Origin: Thermoanaerobaculia bacterium
GTDB lineage: Bacteria > Acidobacteriota > Thermoanaerobaculia > Multivoradales > Multivoraceae
Direction of reading: 5' to 3'
Length of the DNA: 64,000 nucleotides
Assembly: GCA_963664405.1 (NCBI GenBank)
Contig: OY761158.1
Span: forward strand, 5,824,001 to 5,888,000
A program made the translations under genes and the position numbers. The notes below the pieces were generated by a model. The model was not told the DNA's origin. It ran no database searches and saw only the letters and a list, made by a program, of their open reading frames with translations. Numbering within the stretch: the first letter of the stretch is position 1; every line of letters begins with the position of its first letter. Of the stretch, positions 16,038-48,806 are shown piece after piece.

Positions 16038-18186
16038 TCATGGTTCACTCGACTGTCTCTGGAGCTGGGCATCTCTCTTTTCGATCGCTCGCGAAATGAT
16101 GAAGGCGCGGATTGCGCTCAGGGACTCCTCGTCCAGTGAGTCGCCGAAGCCGGGCATACCCAACTCCTGCTTCGTGCCATCGTGAACGATCTCGGAGAAT
16201 TTCTTGTGGGTGTCGAGCGTCATCATTCTGAGGTCGGGCGCCGCGGCGGCGATCACCATGGGCACGCCGAGGCCGCGATGGCAGTTGGCGCAGATCTGGT
16301 GGTAGAGCGCGTTCCCGCGATCCACAGTCTCGGCCGACGCTGTGAGTGTTGGCGGTTGCGGAATCTCGGTACTGCGCAGCGGCGGCTGCGGTAGCGTCTG
16401 CGCGCCGCCGAGCTTGAACACGATCAGCTTCCCAGGCGAGTCGTACTCGGCACCGCTGCCGGCGATCGCCGCGAGATACTGGATGCCATCGATCATGTAG
16501 GTGACAGGCGCTGCAGAGAACGAGCCGTACGCGTCGAATCGCCAGAGTAGCTCACCGCTGTCGGTGTTGTAAGCCGAGAGCTGCCCTTTCCCATCTCCCT
16601 GAAAGAGTAGGCCGGTCACCGTTGCCAGGACTCCGCCGTTGAACCCGGTGGGTAGCTCCAGCTTCCAGCGCGACTCTCCGGAAAGCGGGTCGAAGGCGAT
16701 CAAGAAGCCTCTGGTCTCGGGGCGCGGTGGGGCCTTCGCTTCCAGTGCGGAGCGATAGGGGCCCAATCCCAGGCCGAGACTTAGTCCGATCTTATTGATC
16801 TCGTACTTGCCGGTCGCGACAAAGGTCTCGTCGAGCGAGTAGAAATTCGCGTAGTCGTGGTAATAGAAATACATGATGCCGCTCGCTTCGTCGAACGACA
16901 TCGGCTCCCAGTTGTGGGCGCCCGCGTTTGCGGGGAGGATCCACTGCGGGTCGGTCTCGTACACAACGTCAGGGTTCTCCACCGGTCGTCCGGTCTCCAT
17001 GTCGACGTGGGTCGCCCAGGTGATGCCCTCGGTGTAGGGGTGGGCACGCAGGAGCTCGCCGTCGGTGCGATCGATGACGTAGAAGAAGCCGTTCTTCGGT
17101 GCCTGGAGGAGTACCTTGCGCTCTACTCCGTCGACGGTCATGTCCCCGAGAGCGATAGGCATGGCAGAGCTGTAGTCCCAGTTGTCGCCAGGCACGGTCT
17201 GGTAGTACCAGTTCATTCGGCCGCTCTCGACGTCGACCGAGACGATGGCGGTCAGAAACAGATCGTCGCCGCCACCGGGCGAGCGGATCTGGCGAGGCCA
17301 GGGAGCGCCGTTGCCGACGCCGATGTAGAGGCTTCCCAGCTCCTCGTCATAGACCAGCGAGCTCCACGCGGTCCCTCCTCCGCCGTACTTCCACCACTCT
17401 CCCCCCCCAGGTCTTGGCGGCGAGCTCCATCTCCGGGTGCTCGAAAGGCTTGGAGGGGTCCCCGGGTACCAGGTAGAAGCGCCATGCCACTTCTCCGCTG
17501 TCGGCATCGTAAGCGGTGACATAGCCGCGGCGGTGGCCGCTCTCGGAGCTGCCCTGGCCGATGAAGACCTTGCCCGCTGCGGCGCGAGGTGCACCGGTGA
17601 TGTTGAAGCGACCCAGCGCGGACGGGTGATAGGTGTCGACGTCCCAGACCTCCTCGCCGGTAGCGGCATCGACCGAGATCAAGCGGCCGTCGAAAGTGGC
17701 GACGTAGACCCTACCCTTGTAAACCGCGACGCCTCGATTCGCGGCCCCACCACAGCAGGCGTATTTGATGTACTCGCGGTCGGTCTTGGGGTCGTAAGTC
17801 CAGATCTCCGCCCCGGTGCCGGCATCGAGCGCGTAAATCACGCTCCAACCGTTGGTCACGTACATGACGCCGTCGACGATGAGGGGCGTGCTTTGCATTT
17901 TGTCTCGGCCATCGCCGATGGCCTTGAACCAGGCGACGCCGAGCTCCTGCAAGCCGTCTCGGCCGATCTGGGTCAGCGTGGAGAAGCGCTGCTCTTTGTA
18001 GGTTTGCCCGTAGGTCAGCCAACTGCCGGGCTCGTCCATGGCCGCGCGCTTGATGCGCTCGTCGTCGACTCGACCGGCAGGCGGCGACTCTGTCGGCTCG
18101 GTCGAGCGCCCGACGTCCACTTCTGAGCGCCCGCCGCAGCAAACGAGGGAGAGTGCAACCAGGGCTGTGACGGCTCTTGTCGTCAA
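16038..18186 (-). pseudogene. Type II quinohemoprotein alcohol dehydrogenase (PQQ + cytochrome c), frameshifted at a G8 run (17401-17408)
   Basis: N-half has vicinal YACCGG and TGAPR; C-half has EWWKYGGGGTAW, DNWDY, GAHNW and heme motif CANCH. Removing one G restores KTWGGEWWKY. May be intact in vivo. Confidence 0.85.
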
Positions 18187-20586: not shown

Positions 20587-22265
20587 TTGGGAAGCGCGAA
20601 GACGAATAGGTTGTTGCCTGAGCTCGGGCGCAGCTCGGGTGTGAGCCCGGCGCCAAGCGCTGCCGATCTAGAGCCGGTCGAGGCGACGACATACTGGCGT
20701 CCGTTTACGGCATAGCTGATCGGAAAGCCGGTGACCGCCGAGCCCAGATTGATCTCCCACAGCACGTCGCCCGTTTCTTGGTCCAAGGCCTTGAAGCGTC
20801 CATTGGAATCGCCTACGAAAACGAGCCCACCACCGCTCGTAAAGAGCGACTGGGTAGCGGCTCGCTGCTCGTAGGTCCACTTCGTCTTTCCTGTTTTCAC
20901 CGAAACCGCGTAAACGGTCCCCAGCTGGTCGGTGCCGGGGGCGATCTCGTGCTCCGCGCGGAGCGCGTAGATGGCGAGTCGTTGTCCCTCGTTGGTAGCT
21001 GTCATGCGCGCGCAGGTGTTGCGAAGGGGGAAGTACATGGTGCCCGTCAGGGGGCTGTAGGCGCCGGCCTGCCAATCTTTACCTCCTATATAGGTCGGAC
21101 AGACGAGGACCTCCTGGCCCAGCTCGCTGAACACGACCTCCGCGTTCTCGGTCACCTCACCGGTAGCGCCGTCGATATCGCTGATCACGTTCTGCGGCAC
21201 GGTGGGGGTGGCCCACAGAAACTCCCCGGTCTCGCGGTCGAGGGTGTAGACCACCCCGGTCTTGCCGGGAATGCCGGTCACTACCTTGCGGACCTCACCC
21301 GGCACGAGGCGCGGATTGGTCCACCGGACTTCGCTCTGGTCGGGCTCGACCGCGGTGTCGACAAGGAGGCGCTCGAAGGGGTGGTCCAGATCCCAGTGGT
21401 CGACGAGATGTTGGTAGTACCACGCGATCTCGCCGGTGCCGGCCTCGAGCGCGAGCGTCGAGTTGTGGTAGAGGTGCTTGTGGTCTGAGCCCCCCAGCAG
21501 GAACTTGGGTGCCGGCGAAGTCACACTCGTTCCGATGTAGATGAGGTCCAGGCCCGGCTCGCCCGGCGCCGGAATCGTGCGCCGTCGCCAAAGCTCCTTG
21601 CCGGTCATCGCGTCGTGGGCGGTAATGACACACGCATCAGGTCCGCCGCGATCCGAACAGGAGCGCCCTGAGATCACCTTGCCGTTGGCGATGATGGGCC
21701 CGGAGCTTTGGAGGACGGGCAGCTTCTTGTAATCGACGATCTCGGTTTCCCAGGCGAGCGCCCCGGTGGTCGCATCGAGGGCGAAGACGTAGGCGTCGGC
21801 GCTGGTGTCGATGATCAGATGGCCGTAGATCGCGATATTCCGGTTGTTTTCAGCCAGCCCACGGCCGGTGCCGTCCGGAAGCTCCCGGCGATACTCCCAG
21901 ACGAGGTCACCGGTGACCGCGTCGATCGCCTGGATCACATCCTTCGGGTTCGGCATATAGAGGACGCCGTCGTAGACCAGCGGCGTGCCCTGTTGGCGAC
22001 CCTCGTTCATGCCCCGCGACCAGACCAGTTGCAGGTCCTTCACGTTGTCGCGGGTAATCTCGTCGAGGGGGCTGTAGCCCCAACCGTCGAGGGTGCGACG
22101 CCACATCAGCCAGTCGTCATCGCTGGGGCTCTGCAGCATCGCGTCGGTGACCGGGACGAATTCGTCCACTGAGTTGCGTCGGGCGGTGATGGGAGCTGAG
22201 GCGGCTGTGGCGACGGCTATTGAGATCAGAAAGACATGGGGGGCCGTAAAATACCGACTCGTCAT
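20583..22265 (-). CDS. PQQ-binding beta-propeller dehydrogenase with an internal in-frame deletion
   Basis: WGYSPLDEI, TPLVYDG, DHWDLDHPFER, GKTGVVYTLDRETG, GFPISYAVNGRQYV; lacks 26 aa present in paralog 38280-40136. Confidence 0.85.
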   Translation of the reverse strand: MTSRYFTAPHVFLISIAVATAASAPITARRNSVDEFVPVTDAMLQSPSDDDWLMWRRTLDGWGYSPLDEITRDNVKDLQLVWSRGMNEGRQQGTPLVYDGVLYMPNPKDVIQAIDAVTGDLVWEYRRELPDGTGRGLAENNRNIAIYGHLIIDTSADAYVFALDATTGALAWETEIVDYKKLPVLQSSGPIIANGKVISGRSCSDRGGPDACVITAHDAMTGKELWRRRTIPAPGEPGLDLIYIGTSVTSPAPKFLLGGSDHKHLYHNSTLALEAGTGEIAWYYQHLVDHWDLDHPFERLLVDTAVEPDQSEVRWTNPRLVPGEVRKVVTGIPGKTGVVYTLDRETGEFLWATPTVPQNVISDIDGATGEVTENAEVVFSELGQEVLVCPTYIGGKDWQAGAYSPLTGTMYFPLRNTCARMTATNEGQRLAIYALRAEHEIAPGTDQLGTVYAVSVKTGKTKWTYEQRAATQSLFTSGGGLVFVGDSNGRFKALDQETGDVLWEINLGSAVTGFPISYAVNGRQYVVASTGSRSAALGAGLTPELRPSSGNNLFVFALPN

Positions 22266-22301
22266 TCGAGGCTCCTTCGCGGAAGGTGCGGGAAGGTGCG
22301 A

Positions 22302-23456
22302 TTATGCACGAACGGAGGGGCCAGTGCTCCCGTCCGATGTATCTCCGTCACGCGGGATCTTCCGCCTCTCTGATCGTGCCTCGGCGAGCAATCGTTTCGC
22401 CCGAATCTCTTCTCCCTCGGGATTCGACCGTTCTGCCTGCCGCAGATACTCCAGGGCCTTATCGGGCTGCCCTTTGATCAGCCAGATCGTGCCCAGGAGG
22501 CCCCATGCGTACTCGCCGAAGAGTCGGCGGTCATAGCCGAGATCGCGCGGCCGATCGGGATCGCCTCGATCGATCAGATCCTCGAGGTATCGGCAGGCTA
22601 TATCCCAACGGCTTTCAGCGACTCTTTGGCGAGCCGCCCACCAAAGGATCAGGGGATCGCTAGGGTGCCGTTCCAGGGCCTCGTCGACCAACGCGGCGGC
22701 GTCCATCAGCTCGGTGTCGTCGGAGAAGTGCAGGGCGAGCAGGTCAGAGTAGGCGAGCGCGTCACCGGGTGATGGCTCGCCGGCTCGCACCACTGCTAGA
22801 CCTTGTCGAAAGGCGATCTCTGCCGCCGCGGCGTCGCCCAGTGCCAGCTCCGCTTCACCCAGGGCATGCCACAGATAAGGTCGCTCGGGGTCGCTCTTGA
22901 TGGCTTTTCTCAGCAGAGGAAGGTTACGAACGTGCTTCGCGGTGAGATCTCCCTCATAGCCGAGGTGCTCGATGAATATCGGCGCGTCGATGATGCGAGC
23001 GGATTCTTCGCGCACGATTCGGTGAACATCTGGGAGCACCGTCTCGTGGATTGCTCCCCTGAAGCGCAGGTCGGCGCGATTTCTGAACAGGCGATATTCG
23101 AGATAGGGAGTCAGGCCGCTTGCGGCTCGAAATCCGACCCGCGCCGCGACGATGCCGGGATCCTCGAGGGCTTGCCTCAGATCTCCTTGAAGATCGATTC
23201 GCTCGTCGGCGTCAATGTAGAGAATCCACTCTGTGCCCGCGGCGTCGAGACCCGTGTTTCGAGCCTGAGAGAAGTCGTCACGCCAAGGCTGTTGGAGCAC
23301 TGTGGCCCCGAACGAACGGCAGATCTCTACGCTCGAGTCCTGGGAGCCGGTGTCGACGACTACGACTTCATCGACGATGTCTTGCAGAGCACCGAGGCAG
23401 GCAGGGAGGTGTCGGGCCTCGTCGCGGACGATCAGTGCAGCAGCGATCCCGGCCAA
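22302..23456 (-). CDS. GT2 glycosyltransferase with C-terminal TPR repeats (SunS-like architecture)
   Basis: IVRDEARHL, VVVDTGSQDSS, WRDDFSQARN, WILYIDADE, RLFRN...FRGAIHE, HLGY, then TPR-like helices. Confidence 0.88.
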   Translation of the reverse strand: MAGIAAALIVRDEARHLPACLGALQDIVDEVVVVDTGSQDSSVEICRSFGATVLQQPWRDDFSQARNTGLDAAGTEWILYIDADERIDLQGDLRQALEDPGIVAARVGFRAASGLTPYLEYRLFRNRADLRFRGAIHETVLPDVHRIVREESARIIDAPIFIEHLGYEGDLTAKHVRNLPLLRKAIKSDPERPYLWHALGEAELALGDAAAAEIAFRQGLAVVRAGEPSPGDALAYSDLLALHFSDDTELMDAAALVDEALERHPSDPLILWWAARQRVAESRWDIACRYLEDLIDRGDPDRPRDLGYDRRLFGEYAWGLLGTIWLIKGQPDKALEYLRQAERSNPEGEEIRAKRLLAEARSERRKIPRDGDTSDGSTGPSVRA

Positions 23457-23463
23457 GGCGGCT

Positions 23464-23631
23464 CTACGCTGGGATCGAAGAATTCGACTGCGCCGCGGCA
23501 GGGCGGCTCATCAGACCCGCCATCGTGAAGCTTGCGACGACAGGAGCTACGAAGCTTGTCGATGCGGCCTTACGAATGAAGTCACGGCGCGATTCGTCGA
23601 ACTCTTTGAGGATCTCGTCGTTCTTTGGCAT
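23464..23631 (-). CDS. 55-aa putative precursor peptide MPKNDEILKEFDESRRDFIRKAASTSFVAPVVASFTMAGLMSRPAAAQSNSSIPA (not in ORF track)
   Basis: ATG at 23631 with GGAG 8 nt upstream; TAG at 23464-23466; fills the gap between kinase and GT2 in the same orientation; SRRDFIRK twin-Arg-like motif, hydrophobic stretch, AAA site. Confidence 0.8.
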   Translation of the reverse strand: MPKNDEILKEFDESRRDFIRKAASTSFVAPVVASFTMAGLMSRPAAAQSNSSIPA

Positions 23632-23670
23632 CAGCTGAGCTCCGGGTTGCAGGTTCTCGATGGAACTATT

Positions 23671-24540
23671 CTAGCGCAAGAAGGTGTCCTGTTCCCAGGC
23701 CTTCAGGATGGGACTGTAGCTCTCGTGGGCGACCTCTTCGAGGTGAGCGACCCCGTCCTTGGGCTCTCCGAGCTTCAACCTGTGGCCTCCGTACCGGCTC
23801 AGACGGGTCGCTGCCGCGACCAGCGTCGACGGGGACTGAACCCAACCCAGCGAGCTTTCGACCAGGCTCCGGAGCGTTTCGAAGATCGGAAGGCGCTGAC
23901 TCTCGGTCGCGCCATCATGATTGGCTTCGAGGACGATGACTCCGTCTATGGGATGCGGAGAGATGACCCACTCGAAGCCGGCTTCACCCGGGTCGAAACC
24001 CACGACTCTTTGACCGACTGTCGAAGCGATGGGCTGGTCCGCCAACAAGGGGGCGATTTCCGGGACCAGGCTTTCGATACCTGTCTTGAGATGCAGTCGG
24101 CGGGGTACAGCCAAGACCTGGCTGTCGCGCTCGAGCACCATCTCATCGCCCTCGATGGTGTAGCCGCTGTAGAGGAGGGCCGTAGCCAGTGTCGTTTTGC
24201 CTACTCCCTTCTCTCCTAACAGCAAGAGTCTTGCGCCGCGGATGTTGACGAGGGCGCCGTGGAACACCGACCACCCGGCGAGCGAGTATCGCTCGAGCAC
24301 GCGGCTGTGAAGTCGGAGGTAGATCGTCCACAAGACATCGTCGACCTGGTGTAGGACATCGACGAGATCGCCGTCCTCCCGCACCAGCCAAGGCCCTTCG
24401 CCTTCGACTTGATAGCGCATCACCTTCCGAACTTCGACATCCTGCCGCGCGCTCGTCGGCAAGTAGTTGAGGCGCTCGGCCAGGTTCGGGTCGTCGACCT
24501 CCAGCTCGACCCGCACACTGAGGAGTTGAAAGGAGGTCAC
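23671..24540 (-). CDS. HprK-related kinase (P-loop)
   Basis: FHGALVNIRG...LLGEKGVGKTTLA...IEGDEMV; GTG start overlaps the stop of the PqqD-family gene (GTGA). Confidence 0.85.
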   Translation of the reverse strand: MTSFQLLSVRVELEVDDPNLAERLNYLPTSARQDVEVRKVMRYQVEGEGPWLVREDGDLVDVLHQVDDVLWTIYLRLHSRVLERYSLAGWSVFHGALVNIRGARLLLLGEKGVGKTTLATALLYSGYTIEGDEMVLERDSQVLAVPRRLHLKTGIESLVPEIAPLLADQPIASTVGQRVVGFDPGEAGFEWVISPHPIDGVIVLEANHDGATESQRLPIFETLRSLVESSLGWVQSPSTLVAAATRLSRYGGHRLKLGEPKDGVAHLEEVAHESYSPILKAWEQDTFLR

Positions 24541-24839
24541 TCGCTGCCGGTGTCGATCTGTCGCACCACACCCTCGCGTAACAGCAGATCCAGGCCGTCT
24601 TCGAGGGTGCTGAGTGGCGAAGCGTCAAGGGAGAATAGCTCGGTGACGATTCGGCCCATCTCCTCGAGACTGCGAGAACCGTCGCAGAGCTCGAAGAGAA
24701 CCGCTGCTGTCGCATTCAAGTGATGAATGCGATCGGTCCGGGGGTCGAAGACCACCATCCCCTCCTCGGCCTCGTGAGCCTCGAGACCGGGGATTCGCTC
24801 GAATGTTCTGGCGTCACTCAATTTGCGAGAGGCTATCAT
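24537..24839 (-). CDS. PqqD-family / RiPP recognition element (RRE) protein
   Basis: 100 aa; MVVFDPRTDRIHHLNATAAVLFELCDGSRSLEEM...LLREGVV has the PqqD pattern; ATGA overlap with the upstream GT4. Confidence 0.9.
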   Translation of the reverse strand: MIASRKLSDARTFERIPGLEAHEAEEGMVVFDPRTDRIHHLNATAAVLFELCDGSRSLEEMGRIVTELFSLDASPLSTLEDGLDLLLREGVVRQIDTGSE

Positions 24840-26103
24840 CGAGATCGGAGCCGTGAGGCCAGTGCGCTCCGGGTCCAGTCGGCGATTGAGCGAGAGACTT
24901 GCTCTACTTGGTAGCGCTCCTCGACTGCTCTTCGAGCGTTGCGAACGAGCCGGGCCGAGAGCTCCGGGTCTTTCAGAACACGAACCGCTGCCTGGGCCAG
25001 ATCGTCGTTCGAAGAGGCGAGCAGGAGATCGGTGTCGTTGCGCAGATCCAGGCCAGCGGCGGCTAATGGCGTCGCCACCACCGGCACTGCATTCGCAGCC
25101 GCCTCCAGGATCTTGAGGCGGCTTCCACCGCCAGCACGGAGGGGCACGACAGCTACGTCGGCTTGCCGGTACTGTGGGCTGAGATCGTTCACGGCTCCGG
25201 TCGACTGGACCCCAGGCAAGCGAGAAAGCTGGTCCAGAGCTTCCTTTCGTCCGCCCCCGACGAGCGTCAGGTCCGCGCTTGCAATTCGCTCCCTAGTGCG
25301 CGGCAGAATCTCGCACGCGAGCCGCTGCGCCGCGTCGAGGTTCGGGAGGTAGCCGAAGTTGCCGACGTAGAGCAGTCGTTTACCGCCGACGCTTCTAGCC
25401 TCTCTGGGCGGGCATCGAACTGCGTTCGGCAATACCGCGACCTTCTCGATGAGGCAAGACCGTGCCAGTGATCTGGAGTCGGATTCGGCTGCTGCCGCAA
25501 CACCGTCGAAGAGTGGCGAGCAGACCGCGCCGAAGCGGCGAAAACTCTCTGCTTCAGCTAGACACTTGAACGACGAGGTGTGCTCATTGCGAAGTTGGTG
25601 GAGGGCGGCGATCGACTCCAGGGTGGCGACGTCGTCTTCGTCCGCGTCGAGCAGCAGGCAGGGTCGCGATTCAGACTCTGCGAAGGGTAGAGCGGCCCCA
25701 GCCATATACAGGCGCAAGATCACGACGACATCGAAGCTCTCCTCAAAAACATGCTGCGAAGCCGGTGGCCGAGAGCCGGCGATGCTTGCCTGGCCCTTTC
25801 TGGCAGTGCCCGAGAGGCTCTTACGATGCTTCGACCGAGTCCGCTCTGCAACCAGCCGACCGCGGACTCATGCGGCCCAAGAAGCGGTACGACTTCGACG
25901 CGGTCGCAGTGCTGTGAAGCCCACTCCGAATTACCGATCTCGGCTTCCGGGTCAGACACAGGTAGCACGGCGACGCTCAGCGCTCCGACTTGCGCGAGTC
26001 CCTCCACCGCGAGGGCGGCCCGCATCGCCAGGCCATTGCCCGTTGGCGACGGGATGATCGGCGAGATCAGCAGAAGGCGGGTGGCCCCCGATGCTAAGCT
26101 CAA
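24836..26103 (-). pseudogene. GT4 glycosyltransferase split by a frameshift at an A5 run (25745-25749)
   Basis: N-part RLLLISPIIPSPTGNGLAMR; C-part FDVVVILRLY, LLYVGNFGYLPNLDA, PLRAGGGSRLKILEA. One extra T restores the frame. Start uncertain (TTG 26103). Confidence 0.8.
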
Positions 26104-26114
26104 CGCGCTCTCCG

Positions 26115-26974
26115 ATGCCCGGTATCCCCCGCATTGCGCACTTTGTTTTCGGGCTGCGTCAGCAGCACGAGCCCTTTCATCCGCTCCACTTTTTGGCATT
26201 GGAGACCTGTCGCCGGGTGCTTCAGCCCGATGCCATCTACCTCCACTACCATTGGCTTCCTTTCGGGGCGCTGTGGGACACCATCCGGCCGCATCTCACC
26301 CTGGTGCGTGTTGATCGGGTCGAGGCTGTCGACCGCGCAACCTACGACGATCGGCTGGTGCCGGAAGAATACCGTTATGCGCACCACGCAGACTTTTTGC
26401 GCCTCGATGCTCTGATCGAGCACGGAGGTATTTACGCCGATATCGATACGCTTTTTTTGCGACCGCTTCCCGAGTCGCTGTGGCGCCAGCCCTTCGTGAT
26501 CGGCCGCGAGCCTGACGTGGTCGATGAGCACACCGGCGAAAGGCGTGCGTCACTCTGCAATGCGCTTCTGATGTCGAGGCCGCCGCCGACTTCGCTCGAG
26601 CCTGGCGAGAGGAGATGGCGTCGGAGCTGGATGGCTCTTGGAGCAACCACTCTGGATTTCTCGCCCAGCGCTTGAGCGAGGAGCGGCCGCAGTCTGTCCA
26701 CGTAGAGCCGGAGGAGTCGTTCTTTCCTGTGCCCTCGACGCCCGCGGGACTGGCCTCGCTGTTCTCCGTAGAGCCGCTCTCCATAGGGTCCAGCTACTCC
26801 ATCCACCTCTGGGAGCACTTGTGGTGGCGGCACGAGCGGACGGACTTTTCTCAGCACCACGGTGATGAGATCACCTTCGCTTTCCTGCGCCGGTCGACGA
26901 CGGCGCTGGCTCGTTTGGCGAGGCCTTGCTTGCCCGAGCTCGACGTCGACGACTTGATCCGGCGCACCCCGTGA
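26115..26974 (+). pseudogene. DXD-motif (GT32/Gly_transf_sug-like) glycosyltransferase split by a frameshift near 26583
   Basis: IPRIAHFVFG, AHHADFLRLDALIEHGGIYADID, LCNALLMS; continues in another frame as ADFARAW...WSNHS...SYSIHLWEHLWW. Confidence 0.8.
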
Positions 26975-29403
26975 GCTCGGCGGGACGAGGAATCCGCTGG
27001 GTGTCCCTGATGCCCGGTTGTGGGTACGGTGATGCGGCAGCGCTATACCTCTCTGGTCTCGACCGGCTCGGAGTTCCCATCAGCTGGACACCGATCTCAC
27101 GCGGGCTCGAGACTGTCGGCGCGAGAGATCGCCTGCCGGGATCGAGCCCTGTTGTCGACGAACGCATGGTGGATCTGTGGCAGAAGCCGATAGTGGCGGA
27201 CACTCTAGTGATCGACGTTCCTCCCCCGAAGCTCCACAAGCACTGGCTTGCGAAATACCCCGATCTGACGCCCTACGCATACGTAGCCTGGGAGATGGAC
27301 CGGCTCCCTCGCGGATGGGCCCGGGTTCTCAATCGCTTCGAGAGCATCTTTGTTCCGTCGGAGTTCAACCGCAGCGTGATGAGAGAGTGTGGGATCGATC
27401 GCCCGATCGACGTCATCCCGCACATCGCCCGACGGGTCGAGCCGGTGGCGACACCGAGACTGCTCAGCACTCTCGCCGATGATGACTTCGTCTTCTACAC
27501 GATTGGAACGTGGACCGATCGCAAGGCGATGGCGGAAACAGTACGGGCTTACCTGGAGACGTTTCGTGGCGACGAGCGTGTCGTTCTGGTGGTCAAGACC
27601 GATTCGGTCGACAGGACTCAGCGGAGTGGATCGAGTGTCTGGCGGCGTAACAGCTCTGCGTCTCGGTCGAGGATGGTCTGGTGGACGCTGGCGCGGCTCC
27701 TGGCCGAGTATCCGGGGGCCGGCAGAGTGCATCTCGTCGCGGGGGAAGTGAGCCCTCGCACCATCGACGGGATCCACAGCCGAGGCGATTGCTTTTTGTC
27801 CCTCACCCGCAGCGAAGGGTGGGGCCTGGGTCCTTTCGAGGCCCTGCTGTTCGGCAATCCGGCAATTGTGACGGGTTGGGGCGGGCAGATGGACTACCTG
27901 GGTTCGGACTATCCTCTCGCGCTTCGCTATCAGCTCGAGGATGCGCCGGCCGACGAGTACGATCGAGGAGTCCCTGCGCCGCGTTGGGCGCGAGCCGATC
28001 GCGGGCACGCCGGCGAGCTGCTGCGATGGGTCTTCGAGCATCGAGCCGAGGCTCGAGCTGATGCTGACTCCCTGCGCCGGTCGCTGTCGACGACCTATTC
28101 GGCCGATGCCGTCTGTCGGGAGCTCGCTCGGGGACTGGGCTTTCCGACAGGGACACTCACCGATGGCAACCCGCCAATCTCGTGGGATCGATACCAACCC
28201 GTCTCTGTCGACGCTGCTGTCGATGACTTGATGGATGCCTGCAGTAAGTATCTCGCGGGCGAAAGGGCCAAGGTGACCCGCGTTTGGAAAGGCGATCCAA
28301 AGCGCATCGCCGAGTTGGCGTCGGCTCATCGCCTACAGCCCTTGTTGAGCTCGCTGGTGCGGAGCGGGCGGCTGGAGCAGAATCTCCCACAGGATCTGCT
28401 CGACGACTGGTTCGGCGCCTACTGTTTGACGGCGTTGCGAAACGGCCGCTTGTTGCAGGTGCTTGGCGAGCTCACCGCGCGCTGCCACGCCGCGGGTCTT
28501 CGACCCCTCGCCCTGAAGGGGCCGGTAGACATCGCTCGCGGCTACCGCGACCCGGGGCTTCGTCCCATGGTCGATCTCGATATTCTCTGCCGGGCCCTCG
28601 AAGTGGAGCCCGTGCTCGGTCATTGCTACGATCTCGGGTTTCGCTACAAACGTCAGACAACTCCCTTTCATGTCGAGCTTTGCCATCCCGACAACGACGC
28701 CACAGTAGAAGTCCATTTCGACCTCTGGGAAGAGGTCGCGAATCGAGAGCGTTTTCTCGAGGAGCTGTGGCGCGACGCCGAAAGTTGCGAGGTCGCCGGT
28801 GTTTGTTTCGAGGCCCCATCGGCCGCGTGCTCCCTAGTTCTCGGCGTCGCGCACCTTGTGCATCACGACTTCCTGATCGGCATGAAGCCCATCCTCGATT
28901 TCGCCCTCCTGCTCACCAAGAGCCCTGCAACGGATGGAGACCGTGTCCTCTCCATGGCTAGACTCGGTGATCTCCACAAAGAGTTAGGCAGTCTCAGTAG
29001 GGCGCTCATTCGGGACCTCGCCTGGAGCTCCACAGAGCCGCCCTGGCTCGAGTCGGGCTTGATCGCCGGCGAAGAGGGCCTCGACCGGACCCTTGCCATC
29101 CAACTCCTTGCTCACTGGCGCCGGCTGCCCGAGTGGGCTGGCCCCGGCGCCTTCGACGAGATCGCGACCCGGCCCGGTCTCGTCGGCAAGCTCGGCTTCG
29201 CGCGCCGTGTACTTTTACCGCCACCAAGAGAGTTCCGACTTGCTTCGAGAGAGAGAGGTGCCGCGGGCGCTCGTCTCAAGCACGTCGCGGCGGCGGTGGC
29301 GGCTGTGGTAGACGCAGCGTTGCATCGCAGCTGGCGCGCGCGTAGGCGGGGCGGCTCACTGAAGCGCGAGCTTCATCATCGCCGGGCCGCCAGGCGAGAG
29401 TGA
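26971..29403 (+). CDS. GT4 glycosyltransferase fused to a nucleotidyltransferase (NTP_transf_5-like) domain
   Basis: GTG overlapping the upstream TGA; N-half GYG, WEMDRLP, VPSEFN, RKA, RSEGWGLGPFEA; C-half LALKGP...YRDPGLRPMVDLDILC...VEVHFDL. Confidence 0.85.
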   Translation: MSSAGRGIRWVSLMPGCGYGDAAALYLSGLDRLGVPISWTPISRGLETVGARDRLPGSSPVVDERMVDLWQKPIVADTLVIDVPPPKLHKHWLAKYPDLTPYAYVAWEMDRLPRGWARVLNRFESIFVPSEFNRSVMRECGIDRPIDVIPHIARRVEPVATPRLLSTLADDDFVFYTIGTWTDRKAMAETVRAYLETFRGDERVVLVVKTDSVDRTQRSGSSVWRRNSSASRSRMVWWTLARLLAEYPGAGRVHLVAGEVSPRTIDGIHSRGDCFLSLTRSEGWGLGPFEALLFGNPAIVTGWGGQMDYLGSDYPLALRYQLEDAPADEYDRGVPAPRWARADRGHAGELLRWVFEHRAEARADADSLRRSLSTTYSADAVCRELARGLGFPTGTLTDGNPPISWDRYQPVSVDAAVDDLMDACSKYLAGERAKVTRVWKGDPKRIAELASAHRLQPLLSSLVRSGRLEQNLPQDLLDDWFGAYCLTALRNGRLLQVLGELTARCHAAGLRPLALKGPVDIARGYRDPGLRPMVDLDILCRALEVEPVLGHCYDLGFRYKRQTTPFHVELCHPDNDATVEVHFDLWEEVANRERFLEELWRDAESCEVAGVCFEAPSAACSLVLGVAHLVHHDFLIGMKPILDFALLLTKSPATDGDRVLSMARLGDLHKELGSLSRALIRDLAWSSTEPPWLESGLIAGEEGLDRTLAIQLLAHWRRLPEWAGPGAFDEIATRPGLVGKLGFARRVLLPPPREFRLASRERGAAGARLKHVAAAVAAVVDAALHRSWRARRRGGSLKRELHHRRAARRE

Positions 29404-31886: not shown

Positions 31887-32822
31887 GTGCGGAAACCCAG
31901 AGGACTGGTCGCAAACCGCCTGGTGGAGATTACCTGCCGGACACAGCAGGGACGCTTTCTCCTGTGCCCCTCGCCGGAGGTGAATCGGATCATCCTCGGC
32001 GTCATAGGTCGCGCTCAGCGTCGCATGGGAATGACGATATGCGGGCTCGCCGTTCTCTCGAACCACTACCACATGCTGGTGATTCCCGAGAGCACGGAGC
32101 ATCTGAGCGACTTCATGGAGTTCGTGAACGGTAACATCGCTCGCAAGGTCGGTGTGCTTCACGGCTGGTCGGGGAAGTTCTGGAGCAAGCCCTACAGTCA
32201 CATCATAGTTTCGGATGAGGAGGAGGCCCAGATCGGGCGTCTTTACTACCTTCTCTCTCACGGAGCGAAGGAGGGTTTGGTCCGCGACCCCAGGGACTGG
32301 CCCGGTGTTCATTGTGCAGGTCATCTCCGACGCGGCTACTCGGAAATGTTGGGCGGGGAGTGGCACGACGAGACTCAAGAGTACAACGCTCGTCGTAGAG
32401 GTAAAGAGCTGAATCTAGGCGACTTTCTGTACGAGGAGTCGGTCGTGTTGACGCCTCTTCCCTGCGCGAAGGATTGGAGCTTCAGGAAGAAGATCGAGTT
32501 GGTCCGGGGTCAGCTACGAGAGATCAGTGGGGTGGTCCGGCAGCGGATTGAGGAAACCGGGAGGCCTCCGTTGGGAGTGAAGAAGATTCTGCGGCAGGAT
32601 CCCCACTTCCGGCCGGAGAAGCTGAGCAAGTCGCCGGCTCCCGCCTTTCACGCGGCCTCGAGAGAGCACTACGAGAAGCTCCGAGAGATGTATCGGGACT
32701 TTGTCAATGCTTACCGTGAGGCTGCGGAGAAGCTCAAAGAGGGAGTGCTGGATGCGGTATTCCCGCCGGGTTGTTTCCCTCCCGGACTACCTTACGTGCC
32801 CGAGGTGCGGGCCGGACCCTAG
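31887..32822 (+). mobile_element. Y1 HUH transposase (IS200-like / REP-associated RAYT-like)
   Basis: ITCRT, VLSNHYHMLV (HUH), FWSKPY, YLLSHGAKEGLV...DWPG. Confidence 0.82.
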
Positions 32823-47297: not shown

Positions 47298-48806
47298 TCA
47301 GGCGCGCGACAATGCCACCGGGCGGAAACTACCGGCGCGCAGCATCTGTTCAAGGCGTTGGCAGCGCTCGGGGTCTTTCGCCGCCAGATCGACGTCCTCC
47401 CAGGGGTCCTCGTCGAGATCGAAGAGCAGGCGGTCGTGGCCGTCGTAGTTGGCGATGTATTTGAAACGGCCGTCAAAGACCGAGCGCCAGTCGTCGAGTC
47501 CGGACAGTACGTACTCGCGGTGGCTGTCGGTTTCTCCCTCGAGGAGAGGACGCAGCGACAGACCGTCCATTTCGCTCGGCGGGGTGACGCCGCCGTAGTC
47601 GAGGAAGGTAGCTGTCAGATCGATCAGGCTCACCAAGGATGGATTGACGTGCCCTGCGCGAATGCCGGGGCCGGCGATCGCGAGGGGCACGCCGGCGGAG
47701 GCGTGGAAGGGGACCGTCTTTCCCCACTTACCTCGATCGCCGAGCATGTCGCCATGGTCGCTGGCGTAGACCACGATCGTGTTGTCGAGCTCGCCGCGCT
47801 CTTCGAGGCGGTCGATATAGACGCCGAGCCAGTGGTCGATGTTCTCGATGATGGCAGCGTAATTCTGGCGAATATGCTGGTGCTTGGCCTGATCGTAGCT
47901 GCCTATGTAGCCATGGGGCTGGGGAAAGTCGTTGATCACCCGCTGAGGACCCCGGTATGAAGCCTCGAGCCGGGTCGGAATGTCGACCGGCGAGTGCGGT
48001 CCGGCGAAGTTCACGACCAGCGACCAGGGCTCACCGGGTGTTACCTCATCGAGCAGTGCGAGGCCGTTGCGGGCGATCCAGTTGTCGAGATAATGCTCCT
48101 CGGGCAGAGGCGAGGGGCGAGTGTCACCCCACTGCCACTCTTTCGGTCTGGAGCGCTTCTGCATATCCTCGGCGCAGACACGACCCAGCGGAGGGGCCAG
48201 ACGGTCGAGGTAGTCGTAGTAGTGATCCTTCGGCCCCACCGGGTCTGAGAGGTAAATGAACGAGCCCGCCTGCTTGCCGGCGTTGTGCAGGACCGTGTCG
48301 AAGCCCCACTCGCGAGAGAACTTCTGGCCATCGATGCCGAGGCCTCGCCCAGCCACCAGCTCGCCGGTGGCAAGATCGATCTTGCCGCAGCCGAGGGAGT
48401 GGTAGCCGGCGTCGCGCAATCGCCCGTAGTAGGTGGGTTGCTCCAGGGGGTAGTTGTCTCGGTTGGAAGGAACGCCGCAGTGATCGTATTCGCGCCCGGT
48501 GGCCAGGCAGGCCCGCGACGGTGCACACACCGGAGCGGCGCAGAACGCCTGCTCGAAGCGCACACCCCTAGCCGCCAGACGCTCGAAATTGGGCATGGGA
48601 ACCGGTACTGCGGGGTTGGCCGGGGTCCAGTCCGGGCGCTGCTGATCGGGGAAGATGAAGAGGAAGTTGGGGCGTGCGGTATTCGCGGGAGCGACCGCAG
48701 GCTCCTCGCCAGACGGCTCAGGCCCGGAGCGACACGCACCAGCGGCCAGCGCCGAAGTGGCAAGGGAAGCTTGTCGGATGAACTCGCGGCGACTCTTTTC
48801 TGACAT
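47298..48806 (-). CDS. Sulfatase (choline-sulfatase-like) with Tat lipoprotein signal
   Basis: SRREFIRQ...AAGAC; PNFLFIFPDQQR, CAPSRA, GPH, SDHGDMLG. Confidence 0.9.
   Translation of the reverse strand: MSEKSRREFIRQASLATSALAAGACRSGPEPSGEEPAVAPANTARPNFLFIFPDQQRPDWTPANPAVPVPMPNFERLAARGVRFEQAFCAAPVCAPSRACLATGREYDHCGVPSNRDNYPLEQPTYYGRLRDAGYHSLGCGKIDLATGELVAGRGLGIDGQKFSREWGFDTVLHNAGKQAGSFIYLSDPVGPKDHYYDYLDRLAPPLGRVCAEDMQKRSRPKEWQWGDTRPSPLPEEHYLDNWIARNGLALLDEVTPGEPWSLVVNFAGPHSPVDIPTRLEASYRGPQRVINDFPQPHGYIGSYDQAKHQHIRQNYAAIIENIDHWLGVYIDRLEERGELDNTIVVYASDHGDMLGDRGKWGKTVPFHASAGVPLAIAGPGIRAGHVNPSLVSLIDLTATFLDYGGVTPPSEMDGLSLRPLLEGETDSHREYVLSGLDDWRSVFDGRFKYIANYDGHDRLLFDLDEDPWEDVDLAAKDPERCQRLEQMLRAGSFRPVALSRA

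Follow-up and report, generated by a model that had tools for sequence, protein, structure and literature searches.

On the minus strand of a 64,000-nucleotide stretch of a Thermoanaerobaculia bacterium genome (contig OY761158.1), which was analysed as a whole and is here called the window, a 55-aa open reading frame runs from an ATG at 23631 to a TAG at 23464 and translates as MPKNDEILKEFDESRRDFIRKAASTSFVAPVVASFTMAGLMSRPAAAQSNSSIPA. Within this peptide SRRDFIRK occupies residues 14-21, FVAPVVASFTMAGLM residues 27-41, PAAA residues 44-47 and QSNSSIPA residues 48-55. Three longer antisense ORFs on the plus strand (22803-23528, 23120-23638 and 23302-24219) overlie it, which explains why the gene is 'hidden'. 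A first-pass annotation of this DNA, made from the sequence alone, had picked out the hidden ORF and compared its twin-arginine stretch with the Tat signal of a sulfatase; the ORF is borne out, every motif quoted is present in the translation, and the product of 47298-48806 does start MSEKSRREFIRQ. The peptide stop codon lies 7 nt ahead of the TTG at which the next gene starts, that of a GT2 glycosyltransferase with TPR families (GT2-TPR), and the further features of the cluster are collected in Table 1.

Table 1 Features of the peptide gene and of the neighbouring genes, in window coordinates
Feature	Position	Strand	Basis or remark
Precursor peptide gene, 55 aa	23464..23631 (stop codon included)	minus	ORF and translation, syntenic orthologues, family profile, dN/dS ~0.2
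S14-R-R-D-F-I-R-K21, twin-arginine (Tat consensus) motif	23569..23592	minus	Family conservation
F27-V-A-P-V-V-A-S-F35, [FY]xxPxVxSF block	23527..23553	minus	Hydrophobic core of the signal and probable RRE recognition sequence
A45-A-A47, A-x-A site	23491..23499	minus	Predicted signal peptidase I cut before Q48 (cleavage inferred)
Q48-S-N-S-S-I-P-A55, 8-residue tail (core)	23467..23490	minus	Asn50 conserved; Ser49, Ser51 and Ser52 candidate acceptors
Shine-Dalgarno-like GGAG	23640..23643	minus	8 nt 5' of the peptide ATG
GT2 + TPR glycosyltransferase, SunS/GmaR type	22302..23456	minus	Translationally coupled to the peptide gene
HprK-like P-loop kinase	23671..24540	minus	Pfam Hpr_kinase_C 2.5e-6, 27.6 bits, below the 33.3-bit cut-off
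PqqD-family RRE (peptide chaperone)	24537..24839	minus	Pfam PqqD 7.9e-8, 33 bits, above the 23.4-bit cut-off
GT4 glycosyltransferase	24836..26199	minus	Frameshift splits it into 25720-26199 and 24836-25723
GT32-like glycosyltransferase	26019..26974	plus	Split over two frames near 26576-26582
GT4-like domain fused to NTP_transf_5 nucleotidyltransferase	26926..29403	plus	Pfam NTP_transf_5 5.3e-37

The peptide gene and its neighbours

Judged from its sequence and that of its relatives, the 55-aa ORF is a real gene under purifying selection. A genome of another genus (G008) encodes a 54-aa orthologue (E=2.3e-19, 69% identity) between like flanking genes, and over 48 leader codons dN is 0.20 and dS 1.00. 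Purine-rich GGAG-type sites also precede the orthologues in two related loci (L009 and L010). The identical protein is already present as a called gene on two contigs of the protein collection; a word-index homologue search with the peptide returned only the query, and the family emerged in a full HMMER scan. Scanning of 22000-27200 gave no promoter-like site and one terminator-like site, against 2.7 expected from shuffled sequences. Of the sequencing runs listed as containing this DNA none is recorded as RNA, which bears on expression in neither direction.

The GT2-TPR protein matches Pfam Glycos_transf_2 (2e-15) and TPR families, as well as the NCBIfam SunS family TIGR04195 (1e-19) at 70.7 bits, the cut-off being 350. 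Its best sequence matches in the PDB are GmaR (1.7e-34), 7msk (1.2e-23) and SunS (7msp/7msn, ~1e-22), those to 7msk and SunS extending over the GT domain, and a D82-A-D84-E85 motif is invariant in three sequences. On these matches it is to be regarded as a related GT2 enzyme and not as a SunS equivalog. In the HprK-like protein the Walker A residues G109, G114, K115 and T117 are invariant in 13 sequences; the AlphaFold model (pLDDT 91.5) retrieves PEP carboxykinases and HprK/P in Foldseek (for instance 1kkl_B, E 9e-7, TM(target) 0.53), and weak sequence matches together with the modelled fold assign it to the HprK/PEPCK type. The PqqD-family protein has as its best PDB match by profile the lasso RRE TfuB1 (6jx3_B, E 0.0012) and as its best NCBIfam match the lasso RRE family NF033530 (24 bits, below the cut-off of 70).

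Three further glycosyltransferase genes lie beyond. The GT4 orthologue in locus L009 is a single 430-aa protein that matches two frames in the window, and a contig from run X8 carries an extra G behind 25750 which, by frame arithmetic, joins both frames. In the GT32-like gene the Pfam matches to Gly_transf_sug and Gb3_synth are spread over two overlapping ORFs, and its 331-aa orthologue in the same locus matches frames 1 and 3. The fusion protein has weak matches to Glycos_transf_1 and GT4-conflict and shares 53% identity with its L009 orthologue; between the window and this locus the peptide is 68.5% identical and the enzymes are 42-67% identical. Because two accessory glycosyltransferase genes are frameshifted in this strain, the pathway may not operate in full here.

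The peptide family and its loci elsewhere

The same arrangement recurs in other genomes and in metagenomes. The order PqqD, HprK, peptide, GT2-TPR is found again in the genomes G008 and G068, a Syntrophobacteraceae MAG carries these same genes, and a kinase-based search of genome contigs gave two related loci. An alignment of the GT2-TPR protein, rather than the peptide, served to gather a set of 80 metagenomic loci; 50 of them have a peptide-family ORF on the same strand whose end lies 5-354 nt ahead of the GT2-TPR start, and in nine more such an ORF lies elsewhere in the locus, the nearest PqqD gene being ~50-750 nt from the peptide in eight of these and none being found within 1 kb in the ninth (L050). 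Seven of the 21 loci without an HMM match hold a divergent peptide at the same spot that lacks the RR pair. PqqD is co-located in 52/80 loci, which supports the RRE role that had been proposed for a partner of this leader, HprK in 30/80 and NTP_transf_5 in 4/80.

Enzymes for removing a leader or pumping out a product form no part of this recurrent set. By Pfam the window cluster holds no cyclase, B2 protease, peptidase family or ABC transporter, and none of the cyclase, peptidase or ABC families matches two or more of the 105 ORFs that surround 14 related loci; the Pfam families that recur there are glycosyltransferases and TPR. The earlier remark that a protease and a transporter are missing holds for the window cluster and for the related loci: no dedicated one is present in the former and none is recurrent across the latter.

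The peptide family is large and largely undescribed, and it spans Acidobacteriota, a Syntrophobacteraceae MAG (Desulfobacterota) and many metagenome contigs. A profile search yielded 779 representatives at E<=1e-3, of which 41 pass E<=1e-10, and at least seven of 401 genomes of the phylum match the profile at E<=1e-4, with up to 16 candidates scored in each genome. Motif counts were taken from the best 149 of the 779 matches; one of the 150 best (P0004, 4133 aa with 29 repeats of EPPVVSSVTM) was left out as a repeat protein that aligned to profile positions 30-42 only. No more than 80 aa long in 78 of the 149, these representatives have in common S-R-R-x-F-L-K, then [FY]xxPxVxSF, then A-x-A-Q, and usually a conserved Asn with flanking Ser/Thr comes next. 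The Tat motif noticed at first is a consensus at the N-terminus that is conserved across the family, its second Arg being present in 149/149, its first position being R in 130/149 and K in 18/149, and F18 recurring in 123/149. The best-conserved block is the one around FVAPVV, with [FY] in 138/148, P30 in 149/149 and V/I in 131/149, and it is extended by S34 (129/149) and F35 (136/149). Ahead of the tail, Ala occupies position -3 in 130/148 and position -1 in 136/147, and the next residue is Q in 77/147.

The tail had been seen as a core with three modifiable Ser, and the conservation of RR, P30 and the C-terminal Ser had been named as a check. Whereas the second Arg and P30 are invariant, individual Ser positions vary and none is conserved; the conserved tail residue is Asn50, present in 111 of 132 aligned representatives. 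What stands of the Ser claim is that a Ser or Thr lies within two residues of the conserved Asn in 98/119. Among peptides taken from their genomic context, 53 of 56 have an Asn in the first seven tail residues, against 4 of 22 in a control window, and 49 of the 53 have a Ser/Thr within two residues of it, as do all 20 where the locus holds HprK. A strict N-x-S/T sequon was considered as the key feature and rejected: it starts within the first seven tail residues of just 27/56 context peptides and 70/147 representatives, so that the constant feature is the Asn and not the sequon. Nor is the Asn universal, as the tails QVPHGS (L012) and LAAHGPTSS (L092) illustrate.

Tails are short in many members (no more than 15 residues in 23/56 context peptides), and longer ones repeat an S-N-x-S/T unit. 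Tandem arrays of peptides with variant tails occur, with five copies in L068 and three each in L042 and L087. Some longer family members bear features of exported proteins, namely DUF11, PEP-CTERM (P0016 and P0104) or IPTL-CTERM (P0147), and where PEP-CTERM or IPTL-CTERM anchors are present they stand at the C-terminus directly behind the S-N motif. A divergent subfamily has neither RR nor a hydrophobic stretch; its members retain the PxVxSF block together with a G-N-S tail and lie among the same neighbours.

The leader, the proposed pathway and its alternatives

Two functions can be ascribed to the leader. The likeness of FVAPVV to an RRE-binding motif, remarked on from the start, is genuine in that it has the form [Y/W]xxPx[L/V/I], which the available text of PMC13381572 gives as the leader motif bound by the RREs of lasso peptides and of linear polyphosphorylated peptides (LPPs); in the RR-less subfamily the [FY]xxPxVxSF block survives. 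A predicted complex of the PqqD protein with the peptide scores 0.54, the best of three controls scoring 0.00, and lends weak support to such binding: in calibration 58 of 80 solved complexes attained 0.54, as did 2 of 110 mismatched pairs, and among these, scores of no more than 0.60 belonged to 7 of those 80 solved complexes and to both mismatches. The prediction runs share at least 91% of contacts, with a partner pLDDT of at least 66.

As an export signal the peptide presents the full Tat sequence pattern, S-R-R-D-F-I-R-K, a maximal 19-residue hydropathy of 1.43 and A-A-A before Q, all three family-conserved, and the hydropathy of its hydrophobic core averages 1.76. Among named ESM-Atlas clusters those nearest to it are Tat-signal families (score 0.87-0.90), which serves as a lead only. 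The Pfam and NCBIfam Tat-signal models PF10518 and TIGR01409 gave no match to the peptide at E<=0.01, and the sole such model matched was TIGR02811, with 17.7 bits against a cut-off of 48.45. An Asp or Glu stands immediately behind the hydrophobic core in 102 of the 149 representatives, and the stretch preceding RR is net acidic. The genome encodes TatC (one match), TatA/B/E (three) and signal peptidase I (three), and its three Peptidase_S26 genes sit far from the window. An A-x-A conserved ahead of the tail is what cleavage by signal peptidase I would predict, and, judged by the sequence pattern, a Tat-type signal seems to stand here in place of the dedicated peptidase and pump.

We propose, with confidence slightly better than even, that the product of the ORF is the precursor (carrier) peptide of a RiPP-like pathway that is linear and not of the lasso type, related to the LPPs and coupled to Tat export. 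What the sequences show is the gene, its relatives, the selection on it and its genomic neighbours; the binding, the chemistry and its site, the export and the cleavage are steps that we infer. In the cytoplasm the PqqD-type RRE would bind the leader through the [FY]xxPxVxSF block, and the tail around Asn50 (Q-S-N-S-S) would be modified, the HprK-like kinase phosphorylating a neighbouring Ser and the SunS/GmaR-like GT2-TPR protein, the NTP_transf_5 enzyme and the accessory glycosyltransferases adding one or more sugars. The same leader, with its twin-arginine consensus, moderately hydrophobic core and A-x-A, would then carry the modified peptide through Tat, and housekeeping signal peptidase I would cut before Gln48 and free a phospho/glyco-peptide of about eight residues. 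The product would probably be a tiny secreted peptide that is phosphorylated or decorated with sugar; the many glycosyltransferases and the PEP-CTERM and IPTL-CTERM variants hint at a role in a cell-surface or matrix glycoconjugate. The first-pass idea of a leader that doubles as RRE handle and Tat signal is largely upheld, in that leader motifs of both types are present and a dedicated protease and exporter are absent, with the correction that the conserved tail residue is Asn50 and not Ser.

A broader and more speculative form of this proposal, which we hold to be on balance unlikely, is that of a widespread Tat-coupled cytoplasmic peptide glycosylation. Here the leader would again be RRE handle and Tat signal in one, the RRE would act as a Tat 'proofreading' chaperone, and the Asn-x-Ser/Thr behind the cut would bear an N-linked glycan, or the adjacent Ser a phospho-linked glycan, built by GT2-TPR; the peptides would be minimal glycan carriers, of which short forms are released and PEP-CTERM/IPTL-CTERM forms anchored at the surface. 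To our knowledge, GT2 enzymes of the SunS/GmaR type are named or known for S- and O-linkage, not for N-linkage.

The leader might instead, as the first-pass annotation offered by way of alternative, stay uncleaved in the membrane (N-in), so that a signal-anchored mini-protein displays its modified tail or a primed glycan on the inner membrane's outer face. A tail of just eight residues, and the shortness of so many tails among the context peptides, would suit this, the many glycosyltransferases suggest a larger glycan, and relatives in which the S-N motif runs straight into PEP-CTERM or IPTL-CTERM indicate that surface retention of the motif is evidently selected in the family. We nevertheless think an anchor unlikely: the A-x-A, so well conserved at both Ala positions, is unneeded for one, the hydrophobic core is short and moderate, and relatives anchored at their C-terminus would need no second, N-terminal anchor.

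Export might, alternatively, play no part in the leader at all. The hydrophobic stretch could be an RRE strand only, since the RR-less subfamily keeps PxVxSF and G-N-S, with the same neighbours and no hydrophobic core, and since a similar motif works in the purely cytoplasmic leaders of LPPs, which according to the available text of PMC13381572 carry YxxPxV and undergo cleavage by a SpI-like, soluble-facing enzyme acting jointly with the RRE. The peptide would then have an LPP- or lasso-type RRE handle that is merely Tat-like, and unlinked factors would process and release it or retain it inside the cell; that Tat-signal HMMs leave the peptide unmatched is in keeping with this. We consider it quite unlikely, given the invariant second Arg and the full S-R-R-x-F-L-K plus A-x-A. 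The same leader, moreover, stands at the front of DUF11, PEP-CTERM and IPTL-CTERM proteins, which have to pass through the membrane, and no leader peptidase or pump is recurrent in the clusters.

It is highly improbable that the peptide is a Tat escort, a signal-only protein that binds the TPR domain of GT2-TPR or another signal-less partner and exports it by hitch-hiking: the protein is nearly all signal, its gene lies 7 nt from that of a TPR protein, and it bears a weak likeness to TIGR02811, which covers small Tat-signal proteins of unknown role, but an escort leaves unexplained the position-specific tail Asn with its Ser/Thr, the tandem arrays with variant tails, the S-N-x-S/T repeats and the RRE. 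A lasso core requires an Asp or Glu at position 7-9 for its ring. A lasso precursor with cyclase and protease encoded elsewhere is barely credible and was ruled out, for although the best NCBIfam and PDB matches of the RRE are lasso RREs and HprK-type kinases and NTP_transf_5 proteins are known as accessory enzymes of lasso clusters (PMC13381572, in its available text), no Asn-synthase-like cyclase or transglutaminase-like B2 protease is present in the window cluster or recurrent among the 105 ORFs of 14 loci, and QSNSSIPA is without Asp or Glu for a macrolactam and too short for a threaded ring.

Comparison with known systems

The closest published system to the window peptide cluster is that of the LPPs (LppA/B/K/S/D/N) of Bacillota (Popov et al., Nat Commun 2026; PMC13381572), in which, in the available part of that text, an RRE, an HprK kinase and an NTP-transferase occur together with a YxxPxV leader and a leader peptidase that resembles signal peptidase. 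The window cluster likewise has a stand-alone RRE together with an HprK-like kinase and an NTP transferase, and it shares with the described LPPs a [Y/F]xxPxV block, a conserved precursor N-terminus with highly variable C-termini, one to several precursor genes per cluster and leader removal through signal-peptidase-I chemistry, here predicted. The LPP core begins A-Q-S-N and the predicted core here Q-S-N; polyphosphorylation of LppA falls on S3 of its core, A-Q-S-N-W-K (PMC13381572, same text).

The differences lie in the leader, the enzymes and the hosts. Where the available account defines LPP clusters by a dedicated SipW-type peptidase (LppS) and an MsbA-like pump (PMC13381572), an archaeal/SipW-type peptidase and an MsbA-like exporter are absent from the window cluster and not recurrent in related loci. 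LPP leaders are described there as ending F-E-T, whereas the leader here combines a twin-arginine motif with a hydrophobic core and A-x-A; of the LPP motif YxxPxVLxHQxIxFETxxS the first part, [FY]xxPxV, is shared, and the sequence then continues here as SFSMxGL...AxAQ. GT2-TPR, the most tightly linked enzyme here, does not belong to the LPP core; the kinase, found in fewer than half of the metagenomic loci, is optional here, and NTP_transf_5 is inconstant among the related loci. LPPs are described as restricted to Bacillota in the available text (PMC13381572), in contrast to the acidobacterial, Syntrophobacteraceae and metagenomic distribution of the present family. If our proposal is correct, LPP-type linear phospho/glyco-peptides would extend past Bacillota into Gram-negative phyla and a large family from metagenomes, and leader removal and export would have been solved in a second way, in which the leader itself is made a Tat signal and replaces the signal-peptidase-like enzyme and the pump. 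The leader followed by Q-x-S-N-x-S/T might then also serve as a short portable tag for enzyme-directed phosphorylation or glycosylation.

A signal peptide as RiPP leader has a parallel in the bufferins and oxazolins, whose leader is, in the available part of PMC12452194, a general-secretion (Sec) signal peptide and in which MNIO turns Cys into thiooxazole; a DUF2063-type RRE-like partner is proposed there to mask the signal until modification is finished. They share with the present system a signal peptide that acts as leader, without need of a dedicated protease or pump, and differ from it in their Sec rather than Tat signals, their MNIO chemistry and their DUF2063-type partners (PMC12452194, same text). 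Should the RRE mask the Tat signal in a comparable way, the family would offer a compact model of modification completed before export. In RiPP precursors, according to the same source, signal peptides are 'highly unusual', and the word Tat does not occur in its available part (PMC12452194). A literature search, with subscription journals outside its coverage, turned up no account of a Tat-signal RiPP precursor or of this Tat-leader family, and the RRE-Finder article (PMC7470986) does not mention HPr, a kinase or a signal peptide.

More distant likenesses concern single components. Paeninodin-type phosphorylated lasso peptides, as they appear in the available text of PMC13381572, have an HprK-like kinase acting on Ser, an NTP transferase and the same form of RRE motif. 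The window system differs from them in having no cyclase, B2 protease or lariat. Glycocins such as sublancin (SunA/SunS) also place a small precursor gene beside a GT2 with a helical or TPR-like C-terminal part that glycosylates the peptide in the cytoplasm. Their cores are Cys-containing helix-loop-helix structures with disulfides, preceded by a double-glycine leader and exported by a C39-ABC transporter, and we know of no RRE in glycocin systems. In contrast to these, the GT2 here scores far under the SunS-family cut-off, the peptide has no Cys, GG motif or helix-loop-helix disulfide core, and the cluster has no C39-ABC exporter.

Tat proofreading chaperones (TorD, DmsD and NapD) are small cytoplasmic proteins that hold their substrate via its specific Tat signal until it has matured. 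The predicted binding of a small protein to a Tat-type signal before maturation is complete would resemble them, by analogy only; the partner here is a PqqD winged helix, and maturation would consist of peptide modification, not of cofactor insertion.

The short reading frame and its neighbourhood

The 55-aa ORF on the minus strand translates to MPKNDEILKEFDESRRDFIRKAASTSFVAPVVASFTMAGLMSRPAAAQSNSSIPA, and all the peptide motifs quoted in the first-pass annotation are present in it. It is hidden in a naive ORF list because it is masked by three longer antisense ORFs of the kind typical of DNA with 64% G+C; a GGAG lies 8 nt 5' of its ATG, and downstream 7 nt separate its stop codon from the TTG at which the following gene starts. 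The exact peptide is already a called gene in a large protein collection. A search of 60 related genomes yielded two significant matches. In G008, a 54-aa orthologue (E=2.3e-19, 69% identity) is flanked by the same kinase-like and GT2-TPR genes as in the window, and the peptides of the two loci are 68.5% identical, compared to 42-67% for the surrounding enzymes. In G041 the same leader heads a 165-aa DUF11 protein, and there too a GT2-TPR gene is next downstream. Comparison of the 48 leader codons gives a dN of 0.20 against a dS of 1.00. Judged on this comparative evidence, the ORF is a real gene under selection and the observation of a hidden signal-like ORF is confirmed; peptide expression, leader binding, tail chemistry, export and cleavage are predicted only.

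Features of the window discussed in the text
Feature	Position	Strand	Remarks
Peptide	23464-23631	-	55 aa
PqqD-family protein	24537-24839	-	Pfam 33 bits, cut-off 23.4
HprK-like P-loop protein	23671-24540	-	Pfam/NCBIfam domain scan
GT2 + TPR glycosyltransferase	22302-23456	-	domain scan
GT4 glycosyltransferase	24836-26199	-	ORFs 25720-26199 and 24836-25723
GT32-like glycosyltransferase	26019-26974	+	frame change near 26576-26582
Sulfatase	47298-48806	-	Tat-type start
Overlapping ORF pair	16038-17669, 17347-18186	-	overlap >100 nt
Overlapping ORF pair	59145-59891, 59764-61269	-	overlap >100 nt

On the minus strand the genes are ordered PqqD, HprK-like, peptide and GT2-TPR, and the flanks encode the GT4 and GT32-like enzymes and a fusion of GT4-like and NTP_transf_5 domains (NTP_transf_5 5.3e-37). 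Domain scans of the cluster and the next genes outward detected no Asn-synthase-like cyclase, transglutaminase-like protease, peptidase or ABC exporter. The best solved relative of the PqqD profile is the lasso RRE (leader-binding PqqD-type domain) TfuB1 (E 0.0012). A confident structure model of the HprK-like protein (pLDDT 91.5) resembles PEP carboxykinases and HprK/P in fold, and the protein's Walker A residues are invariant across 13 sequences. The GT2-TPR protein, in which D-x-D-E is conserved, matches GmaR (1.7e-34), 7msk (1.2e-23) and SunS (about 1e-22) amongst solved structures. GmaR functions in flagellin glycosylation, and the peptide-glycosylation role of SunS is stated in its NCBIfam family name; by profile comparison, the closest solved relatives are enzymes acting on proteins or peptides as glycosylation substrates.

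The peptide, PqqD, kinase, GT2-TPR and GT4-NTP_transf_5 fusion genes are intact. A break in the GT4 gene leaves two overlapping ORFs, each in its own frame, and the GT32-like gene is probably frameshifted because its 331-aa G008 orthologue matches two different frames; in G008 each of the two enzymes is one unbroken protein. Over 22300-27000, contigs of three runs from two studies match the window exactly, and the window may derive from them. A short, near-identical contig of run X8, a marine-sediment metagenome from a different study, carries an extra G behind 25750, which by frame arithmetic puts both GT4 parts in one frame. Two further same-strand ORF overlaps (Table) may reflect additional frameshifts or mis-set starts. 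Third-position G+C is somewhat lower in the cluster genes (0.70-0.77) than in most flanking genes (0.78-0.86), and an IS200-like transposase gene lies near the cluster (stretches 22302-29403 and 31887-32822). The distribution of the cluster amongst relatives is patchy; it was not found in the 22 genomes of genus g11.

A peptide family linked to GT2-TPR enzymes

A four-sequence peptide profile scanned against 1.84 billion representative proteins returned 779 matches at E≤1e-3, 41 of them at E≤1e-10. We inspected the best 150 of the 779 and removed the repeat protein P0004, leaving 149: 78 of ≤80 aa, 33 of 81-130 aa and 38 above that length. The RR pair and Pro30, whose conservation had been proposed as a check, are retained: the second Arg and Pro30 are each present in 149/149, and the first position of the pair is R in 130 and K in 18 of 149. 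Phe follows the pair in 123/149. The block [FY]xxPxVxSF retains its [FY] in 138/148, Ser34 in 129/149 and Phe35 in 136/149; Ala occupies position -3 in 130/148 and -1 in 136/147, and Gln follows the predicted cut site in 77/147. Pfam gave no match for the peptide and NCBIfam only TIGR02811 (17.7 bits, cut-off 48.45); neither has a model for the family. In the ESM Atlas the 30 nearest clusters listed all bear the name 'hypothetical protein' and have no Pfam family assigned, and the nearest named clusters, a lead only, are Tat-signal families (score 0.87-0.90).

The linkage was also approached from the enzyme side, by searching metagenome contigs with a GT2-TPR alignment rather than with the peptide. 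The best 80 loci of 467 relatives were kept, and peptides and enzymes were called by our own HMMs on stop-to-stop ORFs (enzymes at E≤1e-10). In 50/80 of these best loci the GT gene is preceded on its own strand by a peptide-family ORF whose end lies 5-354 nt from the GT start. A further nine loci have the ORF elsewhere, and eight of these contain PqqD as well, with the closest within about 50-750 nt (L050 excepted). No peptide was found by HMM in 21/80. Seven of these 21 (L029, L036, L069, L078, L083, L086, L089) hold a divergent ORF of the form ...RYEPPKVISFPIDG...SLAGNSY between the kinase and GT genes, without RR and hydrophobic stretch and with the PxVxSF block and G-N-S/T tail kept; three more have contig-edge fragments resembling family tails, and one has only ~100 nt of upstream DNA. 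Next to the GT itself, the gene seen most regularly is PqqD (52 of the 80 loci, 34 of the 39 that are ≥8 kb), followed by kinase (30, and 13 of the 39), GT4 (29), GT32 (10) and NTP_transf_5 (4).

A Pfam scan of 105 ORFs within ~5 kb of 14 long loci recovered, as recurrent families, essentially glycosyltransferases (GT2 16, GT1 11, Gly_transf_sug 5 members) and TPR, besides unrelated families with just two members each (MmgE/PrpD, IclR, Abhydrolase_6, Glucodextran_B); none of the families with two or more members was a cyclase, peptidase or ABC family. Tandem arrays of peptide genes occur in L068 (five copies, 316-2900), L042 and L087 (three each), with near-identical leaders and differing short tails such as SNMTVP, SNDQQAPG, SNDADPV, SNDRAES and SNDFE. 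In L015 (1414-2085, -) and L016 (1405-2790, -) a PqqD-like domain apparently lies in frame ahead of an RR-type leader and Cys-rich tail, a fusion that would place RRE and substrate in one polypeptide.

Two readings of the leader and known systems

The leader may be an RRE handle, an export signal or, as the first-pass annotation proposed, both at once. As a predicted RRE handle, its block fits [Y/W]xxPx[L/V/I/F/A], the motif to which the RREs of lasso peptides and of linear polyphosphorylated peptides (LPPs) bind (PMC13381572); the block persists in the RR-less subfamily, and the PqqD gene is the constant neighbour noted for the metagenomic loci. Complex prediction lends weak support: PqqD and peptide score 0.54, the best of three controls 0.00, with contacts agreeing at ≥91% between runs and partner pLDDT ≥66. 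In calibration the mark was reached by 58/80 solved complexes and 2/110 mismatches, with only 7/80 and both mismatches at ≤0.60.

As a predicted export signal, the leader conserves the full Tat consensus and an A-x-A site across the family, and its core is only moderately hydrophobic (mean hydropathy 1.76 across the family, 1.43 over 19 residues in the window peptide; a Sec-type signal in the window reaches 2.03). The same leader heads proteins that must be exported, and genes for TatC (one), TatA/B/E (three) and signal peptidase I (three) are present in the genome. However, an acidic residue after the core in 102/149 members, the lack of a match of the peptide to any curated Tat-signal HMM and the existence of the RR-less subfamily speak against a canonical Tat signal. 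The sulfatase drawn on for comparison does begin MSEKSRREFIRQ; at its N-terminus, MSEKSRREFIRQASLATSALAAGAC, a Tat motif is joined by an apparent lipobox Cys.

LPPs (Popov et al. 2026, PMC13381572) are the closest published system. Their clusters sit in glycosyltransferase-rich polysaccharide loci and are, according to the authors, restricted to Bacillota; precursors of 35-200 aa share the leader YxxPxVLxHQxIxFETxxS and vary at the C-terminus, an RRE presents the leader to a peptidase, and a kinase polyphosphorylates Ser3 of the core A-Q-S-N-W-K. On this description both systems have an RRE, kinase and NTP transferase, lie among many glycosyltransferase genes, and share the opening half of the leader motif, variable tails and S-N at the core start. 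The window system would work like an LPP system but is not a member, because it lacks the dedicated peptidase and the pump, both defining for LPPs, and adds a twin-arginine signal and tightly coupled GT2-TPR enzyme. The general Tat route together with signal peptidase I would plausibly take the place of LppS and LppD. The dual-use leader with missing protease and transporter, as first proposed, is consistent with all comparative evidence and with this 2026 precedent, and the earlier interpretation as a whole is partly supported. Bufferins provide a precedent for a general-secretion (Sec) signal as RiPP leader, which is described as highly unusual; the partner protein is proposed to mask the signal, and Tat is not mentioned in the paper (PMC12452194). 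Glycocins have only the GT2 enzyme type in common with the window system. The lasso analogy holds for the RRE motif and no further; a lasso peptide is excluded by the absent cyclase and protease and by a tail without an acidic residue.

The variable tails

The constant tail residue is Asn50 with neighbouring Ser/Thr, rather than the C-terminal Ser first expected to be conserved. Amongst the 149, Asn lies two to three residues past Gln in 111/132 aligned, a count that is partly circular because the selecting profile already contained Asn, and Ser/Thr occupies Asn+2 in 72/117. The family peptides of the metagenomic loci form an independent set, in which Asn occurs within seven residues past the aligned -1 Ala in 53/56, compared to 4/22 in a control window (tail residues 21-27). 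Strict N-x-S/T sequons start there in only 27/56; Ser/Thr is no more than two residues from that Asn in 49/53, and in 20/20 where the locus has a kinase gene. Tails lacking Asn do occur, such as QVPHGS (genome G068) and LAAHGPTSS (L092).

Tails range from 5 to >250 residues and include [SP]-N-x-x unit repeats, His-rich tails, pentapeptide repeats, Hint-like domains and PEP-CTERM/IPTL-CTERM anchors. The eight-residue tail of the window peptide is typical of a short class (≤15 residues, 23/56). In minimal members the leader and S-N motif run directly into a PEP-CTERM or IPTL-CTERM sorting signal (L037, L046, L052, L063, L067, L072, L074, L081, L085, L088, L095, L096; P0016, P0104, P0147), above cut-offs for PEP-CTERM in P0016 and P0104 and for IPTL-CTERM in P0147. 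In L042 (359-970), L051 (4934-5518), L057 (5689-6342) and P0091, a Cys and Hint/intein-N-like domain directly follow the leader and S-N tail (Hint_2 25.8 bits, intein_Nterm 21.8 bits, both just under cut-offs); autoprocessing of such a domain might free the N-terminal piece or transfer it.
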